From the NCBI GenBank assembly GCA_038046625.1, contig JBBSVV010000030.1, forward strand, positions 1-11,565: DNA of 11,565 bases, given 5' to 3'. The first letter of the stretch is position 1, and the number at the start of each line of letters is the position of its first letter. The position numbers were made by a program, and so were the translations under genes. Source of the DNA: an archaeon (GTDB lineage: Archaea; Iainarchaeota; Iainarchaeia; Iainarchaeales; Iainarchaeaceae). The notes under the pieces were generated by a model. It worked only from the letters and a program-made list of their open reading frames with translations, was not told the DNA's origin and did not search any database. Positions 105 through 9,881 of this stretch are shown one piece after another.

Positions 105-1235
105 TCATTTTTTCCTTTGTTTCTTTTCTTTTTTCAGGAATTTTTCCTTCGCCTTTTGGTGCTTTTCAATTGTTTTTCCTATCAATGAGAGTTTCAGGTT
201 TTCCTCCTCGAGCTGCGCTATTTTCCTTTCTTTTCCCGAAACCGTTTCCTGGAAGTGCCTAATCAGTTCGTTCTTGTCCTTATTGTCGTGCTTCAGTTCC
301 GCGAGCTGTTTCTCGTATTTTTCCCCGAGCGCGTTCCTGATGCCCATTTTTTCCTCCTGCAGCCCCAACAGTTCTTTCGAGTAGGTGTTCCTCAATTGCA
401 GGGTTTCGTGCTCCGTTTCCATGACGATTTTTTTGGCGTAATCCCGCTCCTTCTTCAGTGCGGTCATCACGTCAAGCATTTTGCCGGACATTTGCGCCTG
501 CGTTTCCTCAATAATTGCGGTTTTTTGCCCGAGCTCCGCGTTGTGCCTTTCAAGTTCCGTGAAAGTTTCCTTGTATGTTTCCATTGATTTTTTCATGAGC
601 GCGGTCTGGGTTTCGAGCTGCTTCGCGAGCTCGTTCATGTCGTTCTCGAGGTCAATGGTCGTGTTCTTTTCAACTAAGCCCAAAAAAAAGTTTTTTCTCG
701 TGTCCTCGTATTTTTTCCGCAGGTTCTGGAGTTCAATCTCGCGCTTTTCCAGCAAATCAAGCACGTTCCTCTGCGCCCCCTTTACGTTCATCATCGGCTC
801 TTTTTTCCTTTCAAAAATCCTTATTCTTTCCGCGAGGTAATTGCTTTTGAGGAGCATTGAAAGCGTTTTTTGCTCGAGGTCGGAGTAAAGCTCCGGCACC
901 GTGATTGTTTCGGCGAGGGCAAGGAGCCCTTTTTCCTGGCTTTTCCTTATGCGCGCTTCCTCCATTTCGCGGTTTCTCCTCAGGCTGGTTATGAGCTGGT
1001 TGAGTTCACGCTCGTGATCCAAAGTTTTTGGGGCATTGGATTCCGCGCTTTTTCCGAGTTCCTGCCCGGCAATTTGGAACAGTGCGTAAAGTTCCTCGAT
1101 TCCGGGGAGAATGTTTTCAACATTGTAAATGAACCCTCTTCTTGAGAGCTCCGCCCATTTGCGCGCCGAAACTTTTTCCCTCAATGAGGCCGTTTCCTGC
1201 TCGATTTTGTCGCACAATTCCCTTAGCTCGGGCAT
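105..1235 (-). CDS. Hypothetical long coiled-coil protein (~376 aa, starts MPELRELCDK)
   Basis: Very E/K/L/Q-rich helical sequence with no Walker motifs and a basic C-tail. Start moved to ATG 1235 because the track's 46-aa extension runs through the palindromic element and a TATA-like box lies 23-31 nt upstream of 1235. Confidence 0.85.
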   Translation of the reverse strand: MPELRELCDKIEQETASLREKVSARKWAELSRRGFIYNVENILPGIEELYALFQIAGQELGKSAESNAPKTLDHERELNQLITSLRRNREMEEARIRKSQEKGLLALAETITVPELYSDLEQKTLSMLLKSNYLAERIRIFERKKEPMMNVKGAQRNVLDLLEKREIELQNLRKKYEDTRKNFFLGLVEKNTTIDLENDMNELAKQLETQTALMKKSMETYKETFTELERHNAELGQKTAIIEETQAQMSGKMLDVMTALKKERDYAKKIVMETEHETLQLRNTYSKELLGLQEEKMGIRNALGEKYEKQLAELKHDNKDKNELIRHFQETVSGKERKIAQLEEENLKLSLIGKTIEKHQKAKEKFLKKEKKQRKK

Positions 1236-1257
1236 GACTATGTAATGGCTTTTACTG

Positions 1258-1266
1258 ATATATATT
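1258..1266 (-). promoter_or_regulatory. Putative archaeal TATA box (AATATATAT, preceded by purine-rich AAAG) for the coiled-coil gene
   Basis: Lies 23-31 nt upstream of ATG 1235, consistent with a leaderless transcript. Confidence 0.5.
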
Positions 1267-1306
1267 CTTTGAGTTTTTCCCGAGGCAAGGGGGGTTTGCT
1301 TCATAT

Positions 1307-1399
1307 TATAGCAGACCACAAAAGTTTTTCGGCATGTATGGTGGTCTGCTAGATAGCAAACCATTAAATCCATCGAATTACTTTATTGGTTTGCTATAA
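1307..1399. repeat. Double-hairpin intergenic element, copy 1
   Basis: TAGCAGACCAC (1309-1319) pairs with GTGGTCTGCTA (1341-1351). ATAGCAAACCA (1353-1363) pairs with TGGTTTGCTAT (1387-1397). Ungapped match to 4018-4110 is 77/93 by hand count. Confidence 0.95.
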
Positions 1400-1402
1400 A
1401 TA
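1395..1402 (+). promoter_or_regulatory. Putative TATA box TATAAATA overlapping the right end of repeat copy 1
   Basis: TATA-like sequence 24-31 nt upstream of ATG 1426; no SD-like sequence before that ATG. Confidence 0.55.
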
Positions 1403-1425
1403 GCTCCTCGGACATACTCCTTCTC

Positions 1426-2412
1426 ATGCAAGTTTCGCACAAAAAAGGCATCCTTTTCAGGGACAAGACAGAGCTTTTTGTCGATGCTTCAGGTTTGAAG
1501 AACCGCGAAGCCATAATTACGCATGCGCATTCGGACCATGCGAAAACCAGCTCTACAAACACTTATTACCTTACTCCAGAAACGGCTTCTCTCATTGGCG
1601 CGGAGGAGAATGGCGTTTCCGTGAAGAAAATCCCTTTCGGAAAAAAATTCAAGCTGAATGAATTTGAGTGTTCCTTCCACAGTTCCGGGCACATTCTCGG
1701 TTCGGCACAATTGAAGGTTTCCAACGGCGTTGATGTGGTGCTCACTTCAGATTTCAAGCTTCAGAAAAGCATCCTCTTTGAGCCCGCCGAAATTCTTCCG
1801 AGCAACATTCTGGTCATTGAATCCACTTTCGGCTTGCCGAAGTTTTCCTTTCCCGAGCGCGAAAAGGTTTATGAGGACATGATTCACTGGATGCACAGCA
1901 ACATTTCGAAAAAGAATTTTGTTGTTCTCGGAGGCTATGCCACGGGAAAGGCGCAGGAGCTGACAAAGATTGTGAACGAGTTTCTTCGCGAAACGCCTTT
2001 GGTGCACAAAAAGATTTTTGACCAGAATAAAATTTATGAAAAGGAAGGCATTAAGCTCGGGAATTACCTTGAATTGAACCATAACCTCAATGAATCGAAT
2101 GTGCTTATTGTGCCGCCCTCGATGATTAATGACCATCTTCTTTTGGCTTTGCAGCACCAGCTCGGCAGGCACGTTGAAGCGGCCATTGCCACGGGCTGGA
2201 ATAATTATGGCAGGTACAAGACCTTTCCGCTTTCGGATCACGCGGATTTCAATTCTCTTCTGCGTTACGTGAAGGAGAGCGCCCCGAAAATGGTTTTAAC
2301 TACGCACGGTTTTGAAAATGAGTTTGCGCGCCAAGTGACGCGCCGCTTGGGGATTCCGGCGCGCCCATTGTCAAGGCATGGCCAAAAGACTTTGGGGGAA
2401 TTCTCTTCATGA
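1426..2412 (+). CDS. Metallo-beta-lactamase / beta-CASP nuclease (resembles the ligase-associated DNA-damage exonuclease family)
   Basis: Motifs THAHSDH, GHILGSAQ, TSDFK, ESTFGLP, GYATGKAQE, ATGW, PLSDHADF and THG; C-terminal QKTLGEF. Confidence 0.9.
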   Translation: MQVSHKKGILFRDKTELFVDASGLKNREAIITHAHSDHAKTSSTNTYYLTPETASLIGAEENGVSVKKIPFGKKFKLNEFECSFHSSGHILGSAQLKVSNGVDVVLTSDFKLQKSILFEPAEILPSNILVIESTFGLPKFSFPEREKVYEDMIHWMHSNISKKNFVVLGGYATGKAQELTKIVNEFLRETPLVHKKIFDQNKIYEKEGIKLGNYLELNHNLNESNVLIVPPSMINDHLLLALQHQLGRHVEAAIATGWNNYGRYKTFPLSDHADFNSLLRYVKESAPKMVLTTHGFENEFARQVTRRLGIPARPLSRHGQKTLGEFSS

Positions 2413-2423
2413 ATTTTCCGCGT

Positions 2424-3917
2424 TCAGCTTTTCACGCAGAATTTTATTCCCATCATTTCGTTTCCCCGGAGCCCGAATGAAACGGAGTTGCCGCTTGTAG
2501 TTAATGTTTTTTCGTTGTAAGAATCCTTGACCGATGCCGCTTCCGCGTTCACAAGTTTTTTTGCATCGGAAATTGCAAGCGTATACGGTGTTTCCTTTGA
2601 ACTGTTGCCCTCATCCCACTTCCCAAGTATTATTTTGTAGCACCCGCCCTGTGAGGTTTTGGATATTATCCATGCGATGTTCTGGTCCTGGTTCAGCGCA
2701 ACGCCCAGAGTGTCCCTTGAAAGGTCATCGAACATTTTGTGCATGTAAAGGACGGGCCTTGCTTTTTCAGCCTGCGTAATGAGGCCGTAGTATCTCGAAT
2801 CCTGTTCGCTTGCCGAGTCATCCTGCCAGGCATAGACTGTCTGCACATTTATTCCGTTTTTGTAGAACGCGAGCATGTTGTCCGCCATGAGTATGGGCGC
2901 GTAGCCCGAGTTTCTGGCTTGGCTTGTGGGTGCGTTCCACTCGCTGATTACAAATTCCGGTGTTTTTGCATATCCTGCTTCGCTCAATGCTTTTTTGTAT
3001 GCGTCAACGGCTTTCTGGGCAGCAAGGCCTGTGTTGTAATGGTGCCATGAAATGAAGTCTAATGGAAGGTTGTTTTTTGCCGCGTATTTTATGAGCTCTA
3101 TGTTGAGCAGCTTAGGGTCAGAGCCTATTTTTCCGTCCCATTTGTTCGGCACTGCTCCTCCGACTTTTATGCCCGGGTTCGCTTCCTTGATTGCTTTTGC
3201 CGTTTCCCCGTAAAGCTCGAGGTACTGGTCTGTGTCGCCGCGCCAGAAATTTTTCAAATCAGGTTCGTTCCAGATTTCAAAGTAGAATTCGACGTCCTTG
3301 AACTGGCTGTAATATTCGGTGATTTTTTTTATGGCTGCGTTCCACTTTGCGTAGTCTTTGGGCGGATGCAGCTGGTATTCATAAGTGGTTTCATCTATTT
3401 TTGTTTCATCGCTCGAGCTGCTCAGCCATTTCGGCGTTCCCCAGAAGTCGATGATTATTTTTTTGTTTTTTGTCCTGAATGCGTCGACCTTCACTATGCT
3501 GTTGTCATTCAGCATTTTAACCAGTGAGTTCGGGCACTCGCTTTCGAGCAGGCACGATGAATTCCTGAGGCTCCAGCTCCCTTCGGTCACCCGCGAGGTT
3601 TCATGGTCTTGGAACTCTGTGAGGTAAATCGTTCCCGAGTTGTTTGATGTCGGCCTGAACCTTGTGGAAGATTTGAACAAATCCGTGTTCTGTGCCGAAA
3701 ATTCCAGCTGCGAGATGTTTATTGTGAGCAGTTCCCCGTTCTGGGGCGGCACCTGCGGGCAGTCGCCGCCTTTGTCAATCGGGCAGTTGTTCTGGTTCTC
3801 GTCAGGCGGTTCGCACACCCCGTTTCCGCAAACCGGCTTTTTTGTTGTGCAGGCCGCAAAGAACACGAGCGCGAAAACCAGAATGATGGCAAAAAGCACG
3901 GTTGTTTTGTTTTTCAT
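2424..3917 (-). CDS. Secreted/lipoprotein glycoside hydrolase, clan GH-A, GH39-like
   Basis: Basic plus hydrophobic signal ending FAAC; Cys module CGNGVCE...CPIDKGGDC; GTPKWLS, PPKDY..W, FEIWNEPD (acid/base), PLDFISWHHY and ISEWN (nucleophile). Confidence 0.85.
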   Translation of the reverse strand: MKNKTTVLFAIILVFALVFFAACTTKKPVCGNGVCEPPDENQNNCPIDKGGDCPQVPPQNGELLTINISQLEFSAQNTDLFKSSTRFRPTSNNSGTIYLTEFQDHETSRVTEGSWSLRNSSCLLESECPNSLVKMLNDNSIVKVDAFRTKNKKIIIDFWGTPKWLSSSSDETKIDETTYEYQLHPPKDYAKWNAAIKKITEYYSQFKDVEFYFEIWNEPDLKNFWRGDTDQYLELYGETAKAIKEANPGIKVGGAVPNKWDGKIGSDPKLLNIELIKYAAKNNLPLDFISWHHYNTGLAAQKAVDAYKKALSEAGYAKTPEFVISEWNAPTSQARNSGYAPILMADNMLAFYKNGINVQTVYAWQDDSASEQDSRYYGLITQAEKARPVLYMHKMFDDLSRDTLGVALNQDQNIAWIISKTSQGGCYKIILGKWDEGNSSKETPYTLAISDAKKLVNAEAASVKDSYNEKTLTTSGNSVSFGLRGNEMMGIKFCVKS

Positions 3918-3938
3918 TAAGTAATTTTGTAGCCAGAC

Positions 3939-3946
3939 TTATATAA
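3939..3946 (-). promoter_or_regulatory. Putative TATA box TTATATAA for the GH39-like gene
   Basis: Lies 22-29 nt upstream of ATG 3917. Confidence 0.55.
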
Positions 3947-4017
3947 TACTTGCCGGGTTCTGTGCGAAATGCGGGTTGCACCACAGGCTATTTTAAGGTT
4001 TTCCAGGTGTTCTCGTA

Positions 4018-4110
4018 TATAGCAAACCACGAAAGTTTTTCGGCATTTATAGTGGTTTGCTAGATAGCAGACCAAAAATGTCGCCGAAATATTTTATTGG
4101 TCTGCTATAA
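4018..4110. repeat. Double-hairpin intergenic element, copy 2
   Basis: TAGCAAACCAC (4020-4030) pairs with GTGGTTTGCTA (4052-4062). ATAGCAGACCAA (4064-4075) pairs with TTGGTCTGCTAT (4097-4108). Same spacing as copy 1, offset 2711 nt, direct orientation. Confidence 0.95.
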
Positions 4111-4122
4111 TAGGGGTTTTTC

Positions 4123-5883
4123 ATGGACCGAAGCCATACTTGTGGGGAATTGACCGAGAAAAACGCCGGCAAAAAGGCTATTCTGAATGGCTGGGTTGAC
4201 ACGAGGCGCGACCACGGCAATTTGACTTTCATTGATATCCGCGACCGTTATGGGTTGACCCAGGTTGTCGTTAACCCGGAAATCGCCAAGGCCGCGCATG
4301 AAACCTCGAAATCACTGAGGCGCGAGTTTGTTGTGCGCGTTGAAGGCACAGTGAAGAAGAGGCCGAAAGGCACGGAGAACAAGGGCTGGAAAACCGGTGC
4401 AATCGAGCTTGAGGCGAACAAGCTGGAAATTATTTCAACTTCATTGCCTTTGCCTATTGAGGTTTCCGACAATGCGCAGAGCACGGAAGAAACGCGCCTC
4501 AAGTACCGTTACCTTGATTTGAGAAATCCGGAAATGCAGAAGAAGATTATTGCGAGGCACCGCATAATAAAAATTGTGCGTGACTTTTACGACGAAAACG
4601 GCTTCATTGACATTGAGACGCCGATTCTCGCGAAGAGCACTCCTGAAGGCGCCCGCGATTATCTGGTTCCTTCGCGCGTTAACCCGGGAAAATTTTTCGC
4701 TTTGCCCCAGAGCCCGCAGATTTTCAAGCAGCTGCTCATGCTTTCGGGCTTTGACAGGTACATGCAGATTGCGCGCTGCTTTCGTGATGAGGATTTGCGC
4801 GCGGACAGGCAACCTGAATTCACGCAGATTGATGTCGAGATGAGCTTCATCAATGAGAATGACATCATGGAGCTTCACGAGCGCCTAATGGAGAAAATTT
4901 TCGGCGAATTCATGGGCGTAAAGCTCAAGCTGCCTTTTCCAAAGCTCACTTATGATGAAGCCATTGCAAGGTACGGAATTGACAAGCCTGACACGCGCTT
5001 TGGCCTCGAGCTTGTTGAAGTCACAAAAGAACTTTCTGGAAAGGGATTCAATGCTTTTGATGCAGTTGTAAAAGATGGCGGGATAATCAAGGCAATCAAT
5101 GTTGAGGGCAAGGCAGATTTGTCGAGGACCGAGCTCACGAATCTCGAGGATTTCGTGAAGATTTACAGGGCGAAGGGCCTCGCGGCTTTCAAGGTTGGCG
5201 ACAAGATTGAAGGCCAATTGGAAAAGTTCTTTGGGCAGGATAACCTCAAGGTGCTTGCGAAGAAATGCGGTGCAAAGAAAGGCGACCTCATGCTGATTGT
5301 TGCGGGTTCCCCAAAGATAGTGAATGATTCTCTCGGAAACCTGAGAAATCATCTTGCACAAAAGCTCGGGCTCATAAAGGAAGGGGTGTGGAACTTTTTG
5401 TGGGTGAAGGATTTCCCGATGTTCGAGTGGGATGAGGAGGAGCAGAGGTTGAATGCGATGCACCATCCTTTCACTTCGCCGAAGAAGGGTGATTTGCCGC
5501 TCATTGAAAAAGAGCCCTTGAAGATAAGGAGCAACGCGTACGATTTGGTCCTGAATGGCACCGAAATCGGCGGCGGCTCGATTAGGATTCATTCTCCTGA
5601 TGTCCAGACAAGGATTTTCCGCGCCCTTGGAATAAGCGATGACAAGGCCAAGGAGAAGTTCGGTTTCATGATTGACGCGTTCAAGTACGGTGCGCCCCCG
5701 CACGGGGGAATTGCCTTCGGAGTTGACCGCTTGGTAATGCTTTTGGTCGGTTCCGACAGCATTCGCGATGTGATTGCTTTCCCCAAGAACAAGGCCGCGG
5801 CTTCGCTGATGGATGAGTCCCCGAGCAATGTTGATGAAAAGCAATTGAAGGAACTGCACATCAAGCTTAATCTGGAAAAGTGA
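4123..5883 (+). CDS. aspS: Aspartate--tRNA(Asp/Asn) ligase, bacterial-type, non-discriminating
   Basis: 586 aa with an OB anticodon domain, [21 protein letters not shown], motif 2 [19 protein letters not shown], a GAD insertion, GGGSIRIH and motif 3 [14 protein letters not shown]. Has H31 (RRDHG) and G83 (RPKG). SD-like AGGGGT at 4112-4117. Confidence 0.97.
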
Positions 5884-5889
5884 TTCAAG

Positions 5890-6186
5890 TTGCCAAAGGT
5901 TACTGTTGACAAGGAACTCCTGCTTAAGGTTGCGTCCAATGCGCGCCTCAACCTGTCCGAGGCTGAAGTAAAACAATTTGTCCCGGAGCTCAAGGCGGTT
6001 CTCGAGGCATTTTCAAAGCTGGATTCGCTTGATGTTTCCAAGGAAGAGCCTTCGTTCCAGCCGATTCCTTTGCAGAACGTTTTTCGCGACGACAAAACCG
6101 GAAAATGCCTTTCCAATGAGGAAGCGCTTTCGAACACGAAAAGCAAAAAGGACGGCTACTTCAAGGGCCCGAGGGTGGTTGAATGA
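5890..6186 (+). CDS. gatC: Asp/Glu-tRNA amidotransferase subunit C
   Basis: 98 aa with VASNARLNL, NVFRDD, EEALSN and GYFKGPRV; TTG start; ATGA overlap with gatA. Confidence 0.93.
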   Translation: MPKVTVDKELLLKVASNARLNLSEAEVKQFVPELKAVLEAFSKLDSLDVSKEEPSFQPIPLQNVFRDDKTGKCLSNEEALSNTKSKKDGYFKGPRVVE

Positions 6187-7610
6187 CTGCTCCGTTGAGC
6201 CTTAAAGATTTTGTCTGGGGAATTCAGAGCGGGGAAATTTCAGTTGTTGAAAACGCTTCGCGCATCGTAAAGGAAATAGAAAAAAAGAATCCCGAGTACA
6301 ACCACTTCAATTTGTTTGACGCAAAAAATGTTTTGCAGCAGGCCGAGCAGCTTGAAAAAGAAATAAAGAAAGGCCGCAAAGGAAAGCTTCTGGGTGTTCC
6401 CGTTTCCGTGAAAGATTGCATTTGCGTGAAGGGTGTTGAATCACGTGCCGGCGCGAAAATACTTTCCGGTTACAAGCCTGTTTTTGACGCAACGGCCGTC
6501 CGCAAAGCCAGGGAGGAGGGCGCAATAATTCTCGGAAAGACTGTTCAGGATGAGTTCGGGTTCGGAACTTTTTCAGTGAATGTCACTGCGGGAAAAATTC
6601 CCCTGAATCCTTTGGATAAGCAAAGGAGCTGCGGAGGCTCTTCAGGCGGGGCCGCAGGTTTCACTGCCCTTACGCAGCACACCCATGCCGCGCTTGCGGA
6701 AAGCACGGGCGGAAGCATTGCGGCGCCTGCGGCTTTCTGCGGAGTTTCATCCATTACTCCAACTTATGGTTTGGTTTCCCGCCATGGTTTAATGGATTAT
6801 GCGAGTTCTCTTGACAAGATAGGTACGATGGGAAAGACAATTGAGGATGCTTCGCTTTTGCTGCAGGTTATTTCCGGAAAGGATGCAATGGATTCCACTT
6901 CCCTTGATTCAAAGCCTTTCGCAAAAGAAAACCTGAAAGGAACTGCAATCGGCCTGCCTAAAGAGTTTTTTTCCGCGGTGAAGAACGAAAAACTGGTTTC
7001 AGAGGTGAGGGCAAAAATCGATTCCGCGAAGGGGCTCGGGGCAAAAATTGTTGATGTTTCCCTTCCGTTGAATGCAGAGTATGGCATTGCGGCGTATTAT
7101 TTGATTGCGATGTCCGAGGCTTCAACCAACCTTGCGAAGTACTGCGGGATGCGCTACGGTTTCGAGAAGCCCCTTTCCGGGACTTTTAATGAGTATTTTT
7201 CGGAAGTGAGGAGCGAAGCCTTCGGAACCGAAGCAAAGAGAAGGATTCTGCTCGGCACTTTCGCGAGGATGTCCGGGTTCAGGGACGCTTATTACCTGCG
7301 CGCAATGAAGGCGCGCACAAAGCTGATTAATGAATTCAAAAGCGCTTTCAGGAAGGTTGATTTGATTGCTCTTCCTTCAATGCCGATTGTTGCGCCGAAG
7401 TTTTCAGAAATAGAGAAGCTCACTCCTTTGGAGCATTACGCAATGGACATCTGCACTGTTCCGCCGAACCTCTGCGGGTTGCCGCATTCAACTATTTCTG
7501 CGGGAAAAGTTAAGGGCACGGATTTGCCTTCTTCGCTCATGCTTGTTGCGGACCATTTGCAGGAATCAAAATTGGTTTCATTCTCCGCCGCGCTGGAGGG
7601 CTTGAAATGA
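6183..7610 (+). CDS. gatA: Asp/Glu-tRNA amidotransferase subunit A
   Basis: Amidase signature GVPVSVKD, GGSSGG and STGGSI; also YYLIAMSEASTNLAKYCGMRYG, FGTEAKRRILLGTF and AYYLRAMKAR. Confidence 0.96.
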   Translation: MTAPLSLKDFVWGIQSGEISVVENASRIVKEIEKKNPEYNHFNLFDAKNVLQQAEQLEKEIKKGRKGKLLGVPVSVKDCICVKGVESRAGAKILSGYKPVFDATAVRKAREEGAIILGKTVQDEFGFGTFSVNVTAGKIPLNPLDKQRSCGGSSGGAAGFTALTQHTHAALAESTGGSIAAPAAFCGVSSITPTYGLVSRHGLMDYASSLDKIGTMGKTIEDASLLLQVISGKDAMDSTSLDSKPFAKENLKGTAIGLPKEFFSAVKNEKLVSEVRAKIDSAKGLGAKIVDVSLPLNAEYGIAAYYLIAMSEASTNLAKYCGMRYGFEKPLSGTFNEYFSEVRSEAFGTEAKRRILLGTFARMSGFRDAYYLRAMKARTKLINEFKSAFRKVDLIALPSMPIVAPKFSEIEKLTPLEHYAMDICTVPPNLCGLPHSTISAGKVKGTDLPSSLMLVADHLQESKLVSFSAALEGLK

Positions 7611-7731: not shown

Positions 7732-8493
7732 AGGGCCGCGGTTGAGGCCGGAAAAATTGCGATGAAGTATTTCCGCGGCGAATTCGAGGTTAAGTACAAG
7801 GGGCGCAATGATTTGGTTACTAATGCTGATGTGGAGTGCGAGAGGCACATAAAAAAAATAATTTCTTCCGAATATCCATTGCATTCTTTTTTGGGCGAGG
7901 AGGAAGGCGCCTCCGGAACCGACAAAAACGTTTGGGTCATAGACCCGATTGATGGCACAACCAATTTTGTGCATGGCGTTGAGCAGTTCTGCCACTCCGT
8001 TGCTTTGGTGAAGGGCAATGAAATCGTTTGCGGCGCGATTTACAATCCTGTGATGAATTTGCTTTACACTGCTTACAAAGGGAAGGGCGCGTTCCTGAAT
8101 GGCAGGCGCATAAAAGTGTCCCGTTCTGAGTCGCTTGGCGAGTGCCTCATAATAACGGGTTTTCCGTATGATGCGGTAGGCGCGGAAGAAAGCGATGTCC
8201 ACGCAAAAACACTTGCTGCAATCGCTTCATTGAGGGGCCGCATTCATGATGTGCGCCGCTTTGGCTCCGCCGCGCTTGATTTGTGCAGGGTTGCGCAGGG
8301 AATCTGCGACGCTTATTTCGAGTACAGGATAAAGCCGTGGGATGTGGCTGCCGGAATGCTGATTGTGAATGAGGCGGGCGGCAAAGTAACCGACATAAAC
8401 GGAAAAGACGCCTCGTTCATGTCCCCGCACTTCGTGGCATCGAACGGTTTGATGCATTCCGAGCTTCTCGGGCATTTGGAGGGGATGCCTTGA
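7708..8493 (+). CDS. suhB: Inositol monophosphatase family protein (SuhB-like)
   Basis: Motifs DLVTNAD, LGEE, WVIDPIDGTTNF, RRFGSAALDL and PWDVAAG. ATG 7708 (MKELEVAERAAVEAG) matches the typical family start. Confidence 0.92.
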   Translation: MKELEVAERAAVEAGKIAMKYFRGEFEVKYKGRNDLVTNADVECERHIKKIISSEYPLHSFLGEEEGASGTDKNVWVIDPIDGTTNFVHGVEQFCHSVALVKGNEIVCGAIYNPVMNLLYTAYKGKGAFLNGRRIKVSRSESLGECLIITGFPYDAVGAEESDVHAKTLAAIASLRGRIHDVRRFGSAALDLCRVAQGICDAYFEYRIKPWDVAAGMLIVNEAGGKVTDINGKDASFMSPHFVASNGLMHSELLGHLEGMP

Positions 8494-9881
8494 AGGGCAC
8501 GATGATTGGCCTCGAGGTGCACGTGCAACTGAGCACGGATTCAAAGCTTTTTTGCTCCTGCCCCACAAGGGGTTCTGATGCCGAGCCGAACACTCGGGTT
8601 TGCGAGATATGCCTGGGCATGCCGGGCTCCAAGCCGGTGTTGAACAAAAAGGCGGTTGATTTTGCATTGAAGGTTGCGCTCGCATTGAATTGCGAACTGA
8701 ACAATGAATTCTTTTTTTCGAGAAAGACTTATTTTTATCCCGACCTTGCGAAGGATTTCCAGATTACTCAGTACGAGGTTCCTGTCGGCAAAAACGGTTT
8801 TGCCGAGGTTGGCGGGAAAAAAATCAGGCTGCGCAGGATTCATCTGGAGGAGGACCCTGCTTCCCTTGTTCATGAATCCGGCGCGAGGCAGAGCGCGTAC
8901 TCCCTTGTTGATTACAACCGCTCGGGAATTCCATTGATTGAGCTCGTTACGGAACCCGACATGCAGAGTCCTGCCGAGGCGCGCAGGTTTTTGGATACGC
9001 TGCTTACAACGCTCAATTATCTTGGGGTTTATGCGCACGGCGAATCCGTTCTGAAGGCGGACTGTAACCTTTCAATTGACGGCGGTTCGCGAGTCGAGGT
9101 GAAGAACGTAACCGGTTTCCGCGCGGTGGAGGCTGCTTTGGGTGCGGAGGAAAAGAGGCAGCGCTCGCTTGTTGATTCAGGCAAAAAAATAGAAATGGAA
9201 ACTCGCGGTTTTGACGAGGCTACGGGCACAACCTACACTTTGAGGAAAAAAGAAACAGAGGAAGACTATGGGTTCATTGTGGACCCCGACCTTCCAAAAG
9301 TTGTTGTTGATTCTAAATGGCTTTCTTTGATAAAGGCAGGTATGCCTGAGCTTGCCGATTCCAAGAAAAAAAGGTTCATGAAGGAATTCGGTCTTTCAGA
9401 GTACGATGCTTCCGTGCTCGCTTCTGATAAGGGCCTTGCCGAGGTTTTCGAGGATGCCGCAAAGGCGGACGCAAAAATTGCCGCTCGTTTGGTTTCGCGC
9501 GAGCTTGCGGGGATACTGAATTATAACCGCGTGAAGCTCGGGGAAACCAAGGTGAACGGCAAGGCAATCAGCGAGCTTGTTTTGCTGGTGAAAGGTTCAA
9601 AGGTCAGCGACAAGAACGCCAAGGAATCGCTGATAAAGTATGTGCTTGAAGGTATTTCTCCGAAAGAGTCCCTGGAAAAGAATAATCTGCTGATTGATGT
9701 TTCTTCTTTGGACCTTGAGGGGATTGTGAAGGAAATAGTAAAGGAAAATCCGGGTGCGTTCTCCGAGTACAAAAGCGGAAATGAAAAATCCCTGAATTTC
9801 ATTATAGGGCTTGTGATGAGGAAAACCAAGGGCAAGGCAAACCCGAAGCAGGTTCAGGATATTCTGGACAGATTGAAATGA
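8490..9881 (+). CDS. gatB: Asp/Glu-tRNA amidotransferase subunit B
   Basis: IGLEVHVQL, KLFCSC, CLGMPG, RKTYFYPDL, RIHLEED, DYNRSGIPLIELVTEPD, RVEVKN and a C-terminal Yqey domain (IGLVMRKTKGKANP). TTG start with GGAGGGG at 8478-8484. Confidence 0.97.
   Translation: MKGTMIGLEVHVQLSTDSKLFCSCPTRGSDAEPNTRVCEICLGMPGSKPVLNKKAVDFALKVALALNCELNNEFFFSRKTYFYPDLAKDFQITQYEVPVGKNGFAEVGGKKIRLRRIHLEEDPASLVHESGARQSAYSLVDYNRSGIPLIELVTEPDMQSPAEARRFLDTLLTTLNYLGVYAHGESVLKADCNLSIDGGSRVEVKNVTGFRAVEAALGAEEKRQRSLVDSGKKIEMETRGFDEATGTTYTLRKKETEEDYGFIVDPDLPKVVVDSKWLSLIKAGMPELADSKKKRFMKEFGLSEYDASVLASDKGLAEVFEDAAKADAKIAARLVSRELAGILNYNRVKLGETKVNGKAISELVLLVKGSKVSDKNAKESLIKYVLEGISPKESLEKNNLLIDVSSLDLEGIVKEIVKENPGAFSEYKSGNEKSLNFIIGLVMRKTKGKANPKQVQDILDRLK

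Follow-up and report, generated by a model that had tools for sequence, protein, structure and literature searches.

The repeat unit of pneumococcus (RUP) of Streptococcus pneumoniae is a 107-bp miniature inverted-repeat transposable element (MITE) whose terminal repeats, according to passages of PMC3049150, resemble those of IS630-Spn1; in the same passages an IS630-family insertion sequence is thought to move RUP in trans, and RUP is over-represented between convergent genes. Excerpts of PMC10969869 ascribe to the Correia elements of Neisseria (CREE/NEMIS) outward promoters, RNA hairpins cut by RNase III and occurrence in inverted orientation at a site, and they describe the Sulfolobus MITEs SM1-SM4, like other archaeal MITEs, as non-autonomous and present in tens of copies. 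MITE-rich DPANN genomes are described in excerpts of a 2024 survey of 8220 archaeal genomes (PMC11602168). Here we analyse a window of 11,565 nucleotides (contig JBBSVV010000030.1 of assembly GCA_038046625.1) that holds two 93-base repeats, at 1307-1399 and 4018-4110, and we consider it very probable that both are copies of a non-autonomous, TA-inserting MITE of the IS630/Tc1-mariner type in a DPANN archaeon. No description of this MITE family was found in the titles, abstracts and passages of the literature searched, the element lists of PMC11602168 not having been compared. The genome of the window is called G000 below, the window being its contig C30, and G001 is a sister species of the same genus.

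Build and dispersal of the repeats

The pattern TAGCARACCA-N23-TGGTYTGCTA occurs four times in the window (1309, 1354, 4020 and 4065), where 200 dinucleotide shuffles lead one to expect no match. Recomparison of the two repeats reproduced exactly what the original prediction had reported, namely an ungapped identity of 77/93 with fixed spacing, one difference per arm and the other 12 differences confined to the spacers. The arm differences fall at element positions 8/40 and 53/85, and of the others spacer 1 holds 3 and spacer 2 holds 9. The four arm differences amount to two compensating pairs, each a swap between G-C and A-T inside one unit, so that they always preserve pairing. The proposed layout of TA, unit, GA, unit and TAA held for the units and the GA and needed correction at its ends: the outer TA on each side is a target-site duplication that lies outside the element, and the third letter of the TAA is flank. 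The element proper is thus 88 bp (1309-1396 and 4020-4107; 88-89 bp across the family), runs from TAGCA to TGCTA, and consists of two 43-bp units joined by GA and facing outward. Each outer end bears a two-part terminal repeat of about 26 bp, made of the 10-bp arm and a TTTCGG block at positions 17-24; these outer ∼26 bp are alike at both ends of the MITE, and the outer arms, TAGCARACCA and TGGTYTGCTA, are perfect inverted repeats save at the R/Y position. Since the units face outward, a double has the complete two-part repeat at its left and right ends alike; in a single unit only one end has it. The MITE is short and gene-less, and the sole open reading frame (ORF) that enters a copy (105-1373, minus strand) does so through an upstream extension; its similarity to G001 ends at 1277.

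A search of the genome and its relatives with the arm pattern returned many dispersed copies. In G000 there are 17 strict units, 35 units at no more than 2 mismatches per arm and 25 loci with at least 2 arms; G001 has 25 strict units and 34 loci, and its outer ends pair at ∼93 bp (10 doubles), ∼137 bp (5 long forms) or 48 bp (2 singles). Several contigs terminate within a copy. In metagenomes the summed contig depth over the MITE is ∼27 times that of its flanks (274 vs 10; 1162 vs 43), and contigs diverge into many different flanks precisely at 4018, 4109/4110 and 1398/1399, while none of the contigs of four DNA runs spans either window copy so as to yield an empty allele. The strict unit is present in 7 of 41 sampled relatives (G000 counted) and in 9 of 215 genomes of the phylum, 7 of these 9 belonging to one 23-genome family; outside the phylum it appears in several further small archaeal genomes. 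Public records carrying units are labelled Candidatus Iainarchaeum andersonii, Diapherotrites, Micrarchaeota, Aenigmatarchaeota or "uncultured archaeon", and the five unit-bearing public genomes that were probed all measure 0.8-1.4 Mb. So patchy a distribution is what is expected of a mobile element.

Two further groups of matches were set aside. The two found in viral contigs are unrelated, as they have no TA flanks and unrelated spacers, and matches in Finegoldia and other bacteria were taken as unrelated hairpins on account of their different spacers and T-run flanks. The Finegoldia/Peptoniphilaceae records (L066, L087, L088, L110 and L124) have the same 10-bp arms around unrelated loops, with runs of A and T on either side, and look like terminator hairpins that match by chance or convergence.

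The host is a small-genome archaeon of DPANN type from groundwater. Its assembly comprises 986 kb (0.99 Mb) in 57 contigs at 48% G+C, is 84.6% complete and encodes a two-repeat TATA-binding protein, which places it among the archaea; it contains no small-subunit rRNA gene. A search for sequencing runs that contain window positions 2500-7500 found no RNA runs, only DNA runs from groundwater or aquifer metagenomes. A 392-aa open frame on another contig (C49:3889-4095) gives a Sigma70_r2 match of 37.7 bits, above the Pfam cut-off, which could stem from gene transfer, from a contig that contaminates the assembly or from a divergent helix-turn-helix protein.

Filled and empty sites

Mobility shows in a comparison of the two sister species, in which empty orthologous sites were found in both directions. 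At least eight clean filled/empty pairs are available; six keep a bare TA, one reads TC, and the eighth is a composite site that keeps TA. Among the 34 G001 loci, 4 lie near contig ends, 8 have an unmatched flank and 1 has its flanks on two contigs, leaving 21 with both flanks on one G000 contig, and 6 of these 21 are cleanly empty in G000. Four of them show an exact TA in G000 against TA-element-TA in G001 (C16:9094, C21:21286, C24:12694, which is a 135-bp long form, and C35:26280), at one the empty G000 site reads TC, and at one the G001 insertion is a 43-bp single unit at the central TA of another small repeat. Conversely, copies at C5:20998 and C54:2811 of G000 correspond to a bare TA in G001, and a 240-bp composite at C39:910 is absent there, again with a bare TA. 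Each lineage has thus gained, or precisely lost, copies after the split. Doubles also decay to singles by deletion between direct arms: the single unit at C14:12698 of G000, with mixed G..T arms, is the product of an arm 1-arm 3 deletion from a double still present at the same site in G001, which explains the rare mixed-arm units.

The site of copy 2, between a GH39-like gene and aspS at 4123, offers a comparison across more genomes. Of 21 aspS loci aligned from genomes of the family, only those of G000 and G001 hold a MITE; in the other 19 the site runs uninterrupted as TATA(A)..GGGG/GTGG..ATG and is preceded by a motif resembling a TATA box (ATTTTAAGG or ATTTAATGC), which lies ∼45 nt ahead of the ATG, so that ATTTTAAGG is probably the native TATA box of aspS. 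Insertion in G000 took place within the TATA(A)..GGGG stretch, at ctcgTATA^TAATAGGGG, and the MITE now separates that box from the AGGGG before the gene. G001 has a MITE at the identical TA, and because this belongs to another subfamily, lies in the opposite orientation and has spacers far more divergent from those in G000 than are the flanks (93-95% identical), the site points to independent insertion or replacement over inheritance or simple inversion. An inversion in situ was rejected on the same divergence of the spacers, and a simple inversion would moreover mismatch the arms. As for what the insertion does to aspS, the copy may add a ∼90-nt hairpin to a 5′ leader read from the native promoter; alternatively, an outward promoter inside the MITE might act on the neighbouring genes. 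Within unit B, GCCGAAATATTTTAT might serve as a BRE/TATA pair of an archaeal promoter; the block also makes up the inward-lying part of the IS630-like terminal repeat, and it stands at no consistent distance from start codons. The reading of TGCTATAAT at the MITE end as a bacterial extended -10 was dropped because the host is archaeal. The aspS product itself (4123-5883, 586 aa) is an aspartyl-tRNA synthetase with a GAD insertion domain, which we take to mark the bacterial type, and GatA- and GatB-like genes follow downstream (6183-7610 and 8490-9881).

Copy 1 lies between a hypothetical gene and an RMMBL-domain gene at 1426, and comparison with G001 gave no empty orthologous site for it. The interval 1278-1423, which in G000 is 146 bp including the MITE, corresponds in G001 to 1945 bp with two genes, by motif recognition HAD-phosphatase-like (302 aa) and glycosyltransferase-like (363 aa). 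A deletion or an insertion has therefore occurred at the MITE, and copy 1 marks a rearrangement breakpoint. Elsewhere, at C5:20998-21095, a G000-specific copy lies 4 nt upstream of the ATG of the gene at C5:21092-22291. The G001 counterpart of this gene has an AT-rich box at about -30 and no leader, and the MITE now separates a probably leaderless gene from its promoter.

The probable IS630 link, local hairpins and rival explanations

Duplication of TA points to the IS630/Tc1-mariner group. G001 contains two identical 1127-bp insertion sequences, flanked by TA on both sides, that encode a 364-aa transposase with DDE_3 and HTH_32/33/23 domains; five metagenome relatives share its end sequences at every end that their contigs include. 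When both are read inward, the ends of the MITE agree with the right end of the insertion sequence at 17/28 positions at offset 0, which is similarity and not identity, and which equals the agreement of the insertion sequence's own two ends with each other (17/28); at 20 other offsets the agreement was at most 13/28, and none of 5000 shuffles reached 17. The two have in common CCA(A) (positions 8-11) and TT(T)CGG (positions 19-24). Such similarity to IS630-type ends would explain why the units face outward with the full repeat at the outer ends, and end comparison suggests that an IS630-type element is probably the partner family of the MITE. The MITE, which integrates at TA with duplication of the TA on both sides, would then be cut and pasted by an IS630-family DDE transposase supplied in trans, whose two helix-turn-helix domains would bind the ∼26-bp terminal repeat.

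Several observations weigh against this reading. No IS630-type transposase was detected in G000, either with Pfam DDE_3 or by tblastn with the G001 protein (nothing below E = 2), nor in the MITE carriers G003, G008 and G015 or in five other MITE-bearing genomes. The G001 transposase is found in 1 of the 215 phylum genomes (E ≤ 1e-10), yet G000 has insertions that are absent from G001. Absence of the transposase is nevertheless weak evidence, since these assemblies are 80-90% complete and insertion sequences are often lost from them. No full-length element with TAGCARACCA ends was found, and the known ends are like those of the MITE at just 17 of 28 positions. Cut-and-paste by a DDE enzyme gives no reason for the inner arms and leaves unexplained the strict pairing of the variable base within each unit, which holds in 46 of 46 units from 23 distinct doubles. 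Finally, the empty sites, compared between two sister species, could in principle be precise excisions instead of sites that were never filled.

The question of the hairpins bears on all of the alternatives. The original prediction had drawn each repeat as two hairpins, and it was borne out as regards the compensating changes, which are real and rest on few independent events, while the fold of lowest energy turned out to be a single long hairpin (-38.0 and -39.6 kcal/mol for the two 93-nt copies, z ∼-9) in which arm 1 pairs with arm 4, arm 2 pairs with arm 3 and the two spacers pair with each other. Five genomes contributed 21 doubles, 19 of them distinct, to an alignment in which the variable pair of unit 1 is GC in 12 and AU in 7 cases, that of unit 2 is AU in 11 and GC in 8, and neither is ever unpaired; the pair adjacent to the arm is CG in 15, UA in 2 and UG in 2. 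Under the two-hairpin pairing the covariation score is 0.137 as compared with 0.079 for shuffles, and 0 of 500 shuffles reach it, whereas under the long-hairpin pairing the same positions give G-U pairs or mismatches and the score falls below all 500 shuffles. The stem also continues into the spacer, through base pairs that vary between lineages: among 78 distinct units taken from records of archaea, after removal of 13 loci whose titles were bacterial or odd, the mean extension is 2.2 Watson-Crick pairs, compared with 0.75 ± 0.15 for shuffled partners. We conclude that the stem covariation is genuine and that it speaks for two local hairpins rather than the long one, although the latter is lower in energy. 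Of the 21 stem pairs counted, only 3 show changes in both partners and 10 show no variation, so the covariation rests on few events, and since the copies are related its figures overstate independence.

These local hairpins speak for a REP/REPIN-like reading, in which a Y1 enzyme (HUH, RAYT or IS200/IS605-type) recognises the two hairpins and moves the repeat as a folded single strand of DNA. Compensating changes that keep the short hairpins and not the long one would suit it, as would the stem extension, the two units being inverted copies of each other as in a REPIN, and the presence of 7 Y1_Tnp matches in G001 (G015 has 1). IS200/IS605-type insertion makes no target duplication, however, and TA is duplicated on both sides at the clean filled/empty sites. 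The MITE carriers G000, G003 and G008 gave no Y1_Tnp match; at 6 loci around Y1 genes of G001 and G015 no arm was found at ≤1 mismatch save chance single hits; the one G001 Y1 locus for which ORFs were listed, with a 408-aa ORF beside the Y1 gene, looks like an ordinary insertion sequence; and the ends of the MITE resemble those of IS630. We thus regard movement by a Y1 enzyme as very unlikely. Of the two kinds of element that had been put forward together, the MITE is supported by the dispersed copies, TA duplication, filled and empty sites and IS630-like ends, and the REP/REPIN is not, there being no Y1 or RAYT gene linked to the arms; among the co-occurring transposases named there for checking, the candidate is the IS630-type gene of G001, whose insertion sequence has similar ends. 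The Y1_Tnp matches of G001 lie on contigs C5, C12, C16, C32, C33, C40 and C6, at least 4 of the 7 at contig ends, which indicates a multi-copy Y1 insertion sequence that breaks the assembly.

The same hairpins, together with the strong folds (z from -6.8 to -9.2) and the covariation at three stem positions, might instead mark an RNA-level module (a leader hairpin, a processing site or a small RNA) that is under selection for its fold and only secondarily mobile, and several copies do lie directly upstream of start codons, as at aspS and, at 4 nt, at the C5:21092 gene. Against a structured RNA, the search of Rfam gave no match at E ≤ 1 in the window, only two chance-level hits to miRNA models (E 0.48 and 0.75) at seven related loci that included long forms, and no family that matches the long forms carrying a nested module. 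Copies occur in either orientation and in convergent spacers, the aspS site holds different subfamilies in opposite orientation in the two species, and, with 18 of the 21 stem pairs lacking any two-sided change, the covariation rests on few events among related copies; a structured RNA is accordingly extremely unlikely. A protein-binding array, that is, a transcription-factor operator or sites of a site-specific recombinase serving divergent genes, would account for four near-identical 10-bp half-sites at fixed spacing and for the position of both window copies between divergent ORFs. By crude ORF calls, the 23 classifiable loci divide into 8 divergent, 7 convergent and 8 tandem (genome-wide spacers: 180, 174 and 550, respectively), so that convergent spacers hold copies as often as divergent ones and the setting "between divergent genes", which the original prediction had named, is incidental and not a dedicated regulatory site. 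To judge from their sequence, the two leftward genes of the window have AT-rich TATA-like boxes of their own ∼26 nt before their ATGs. With presence/absence polymorphism between sister species, TA duplication and copies in all spacer types, an array deserves next to no credence; neither it nor the structured RNA, both of which the original prediction had offered, is supported.

Within the preferred reading of a transposase-mobilised MITE, the matched arms still call for a cause. Of the 23 distinct doubles, 22 combine one G-arm and one A-arm unit, and both spacer types are found with both arm types. Two causes are likely to lie behind arm matching and this one-G-one-A rule: the 43-bp unit may be a minimal mobile palindrome whose two ends travel together, for which one single-unit insertion (filled in G001, empty in G000) was observed, and doubles whose four arms are identical may be lost faster because of slippage or unstable hairpins. 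Selection may also act on the local hairpins themselves. A joint reading would have the local hairpins needed and not a by-product, the 43-bp unit recognised in folded form (as extruded DNA or RNA), doubles of G-arm and A-arm selected because they fold as two hairpins and the whole moved by a transposase in trans as portable modules; we consider it unlikely. If it were true, these MITEs would serve as movable leaders or promoters in front of essential genes, aspS among them, and most of these reduced genomes, having no transposase of their own, would borrow one from a co-resident insertion sequence, a virus or the symbiont's host cell.

Nested repeats, significance and comparison with known systems

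In the long forms of the MITE the inner arm is split between TAGCA and AACCA by a 46-nt module of two hairpins (CCTYG...CRAGG). Both hairpins of this module are GC-rich and show compensating stem changes. At one site G000 has a long form (C39:14588) and G001 the short form (C24:3606), and no fewer than 12 further loci of G000 have the module with no MITE around it, which suggests a tiny repeat family in its own right. A second TA-flanked palindromic repeat, with ends TATCRAAGGAC and GTCCTTYGATA, repeatedly hosts the MITE at its central TA. Coordinates are collected in Table 1.

Table 1. Features of the two window copies and locations of associated repeats (window positions unless a contig is given).
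Feature	Position	Strand	Remark
TA, left target duplicate of MITE copy 1	1307..1308	.	by comparison with clean filled/empty sites at other loci of the genome
Copy 1 unit A, G-type arms TAGCAGACCA / TGGTCTGCTA, 23-nt spacer	1309..1351	.	
Copy 1 left terminal inverted repeat, outer 26-28 bp of unit A	within 1309..1351, with TTTTTCGG at 1325-1332		
Copy 1 GA junction between units	1352..1353	.	invariant in 21 aligned doubles
Copy 1 unit B', A-type arms TAGCAAACCA / TGGTTTGCTA	1354..1396	.	
Copy 1 right terminal inverted repeat, outer end of unit B'	within 1354..1396, with TCGAATTA at 1373-1380 (inward, TAATTCGA)		
TA, right target duplicate of copy 1	1397..1398	.	metagenome contigs branch into many flanks at 1398/1399
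ATTTTAAGG, putative native TATA box of aspS, MITE now between box and gene	3990..3998	+	
TA, left target duplicate of copy 2	4018..4019	.	relatives have uninterrupted TATAATAGGGG-type site; contigs branch at 4018
Copy 2 unit A with A-type arms; TTTTTCGG of the left terminal repeat at 4036-4043	4020..4062	.	
Copy 2 GA junction	4063..4064	.	invariant in 21 aligned doubles
Copy 2 unit B, G-type arms, right terminal repeat	4065..4107	.	
Copy 2 right terminal repeat	within 4065..4107, with CCGAAATA at 4084-4091 (inward, TATTTCGG)		
TA, right target duplicate of copy 2	4108..4109	.	aspS-site relatives; contig branching
AGGGG (ribosome-binding-site-like, 4112-4116) and aspS ATG (4123), directly past copy 2	4112..4125	+	
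Long forms, G000	C39:14588-14724, C1:13736-13914, C2:14337-14469, C3:26348-26483, C41:34265-34399		
46-nt module at other G000 loci	C3:38287, C5:33405, C5:62575, C13:14477, C15:524, C18:3933, C36:282, C40:2917, C46:10584, C48:9704, C53:3985, C57:6479		
TATCRAAGGAC repeat	G000 C39:860-1100, C7:30742-30969, C26:1-108; G001 C23:9206, C26:19254		

The conspicuous palindromes of this genome are then, on the reading we prefer, selfish mobile DNA and not a new RNA gene or regulatory array, and their exact boundaries can be used for masking in annotation. Active transposon families persist even in DPANN genomes of 1 Mb and insert in the gap between an essential gene and its promoter, and the aspS sites, with different subfamilies at the same TA in two sister species, are natural experiments on how far an archaeal promoter or leader tolerates insertion. 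Small questions for transposon biology are why pairing is so strict within the 43-bp unit, why doubles follow the one-G-one-A rule and why a cognate transposase is so scarce.

With REP, BIME and REPIN sequences the family shares inverted pairs of hairpin units, modular mosaics with other small hairpins and an extragenic location; it differs in duplicating TA, in its IS630-like ends and in that neither a linked Y1 gene nor a conserved 5′ GTAG was found. Correia elements insert at TA and are likewise small, TA-flanked palindromic MITEs beside genes, whereas archaeal promoters are of a different type, and promoter activity and RNA processing are known for the Correia elements only. The MITEs of Sulfolobus are also non-autonomous elements of archaea with tens of copies, and one of their families is reportedly tied to an IS630-type element; they belong to a different lineage and differ in sequence. 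RUP, as portrayed in passages of PMC3049150, is like the present family in its similar size, lack of genes, dispersed copies, target duplication, IS630-like ends and strong predicted fold. The differences are that the host here is an archaeon, that the sequences are unrelated, that a candidate partner was found in just one MITE-carrying genome, and that in the present family both halves are self-complementary 43-bp units, either one having a matched variable base pair to itself. The element is of an ordinary kind and odd in one respect: its two halves each preserve a small hairpin of their own.

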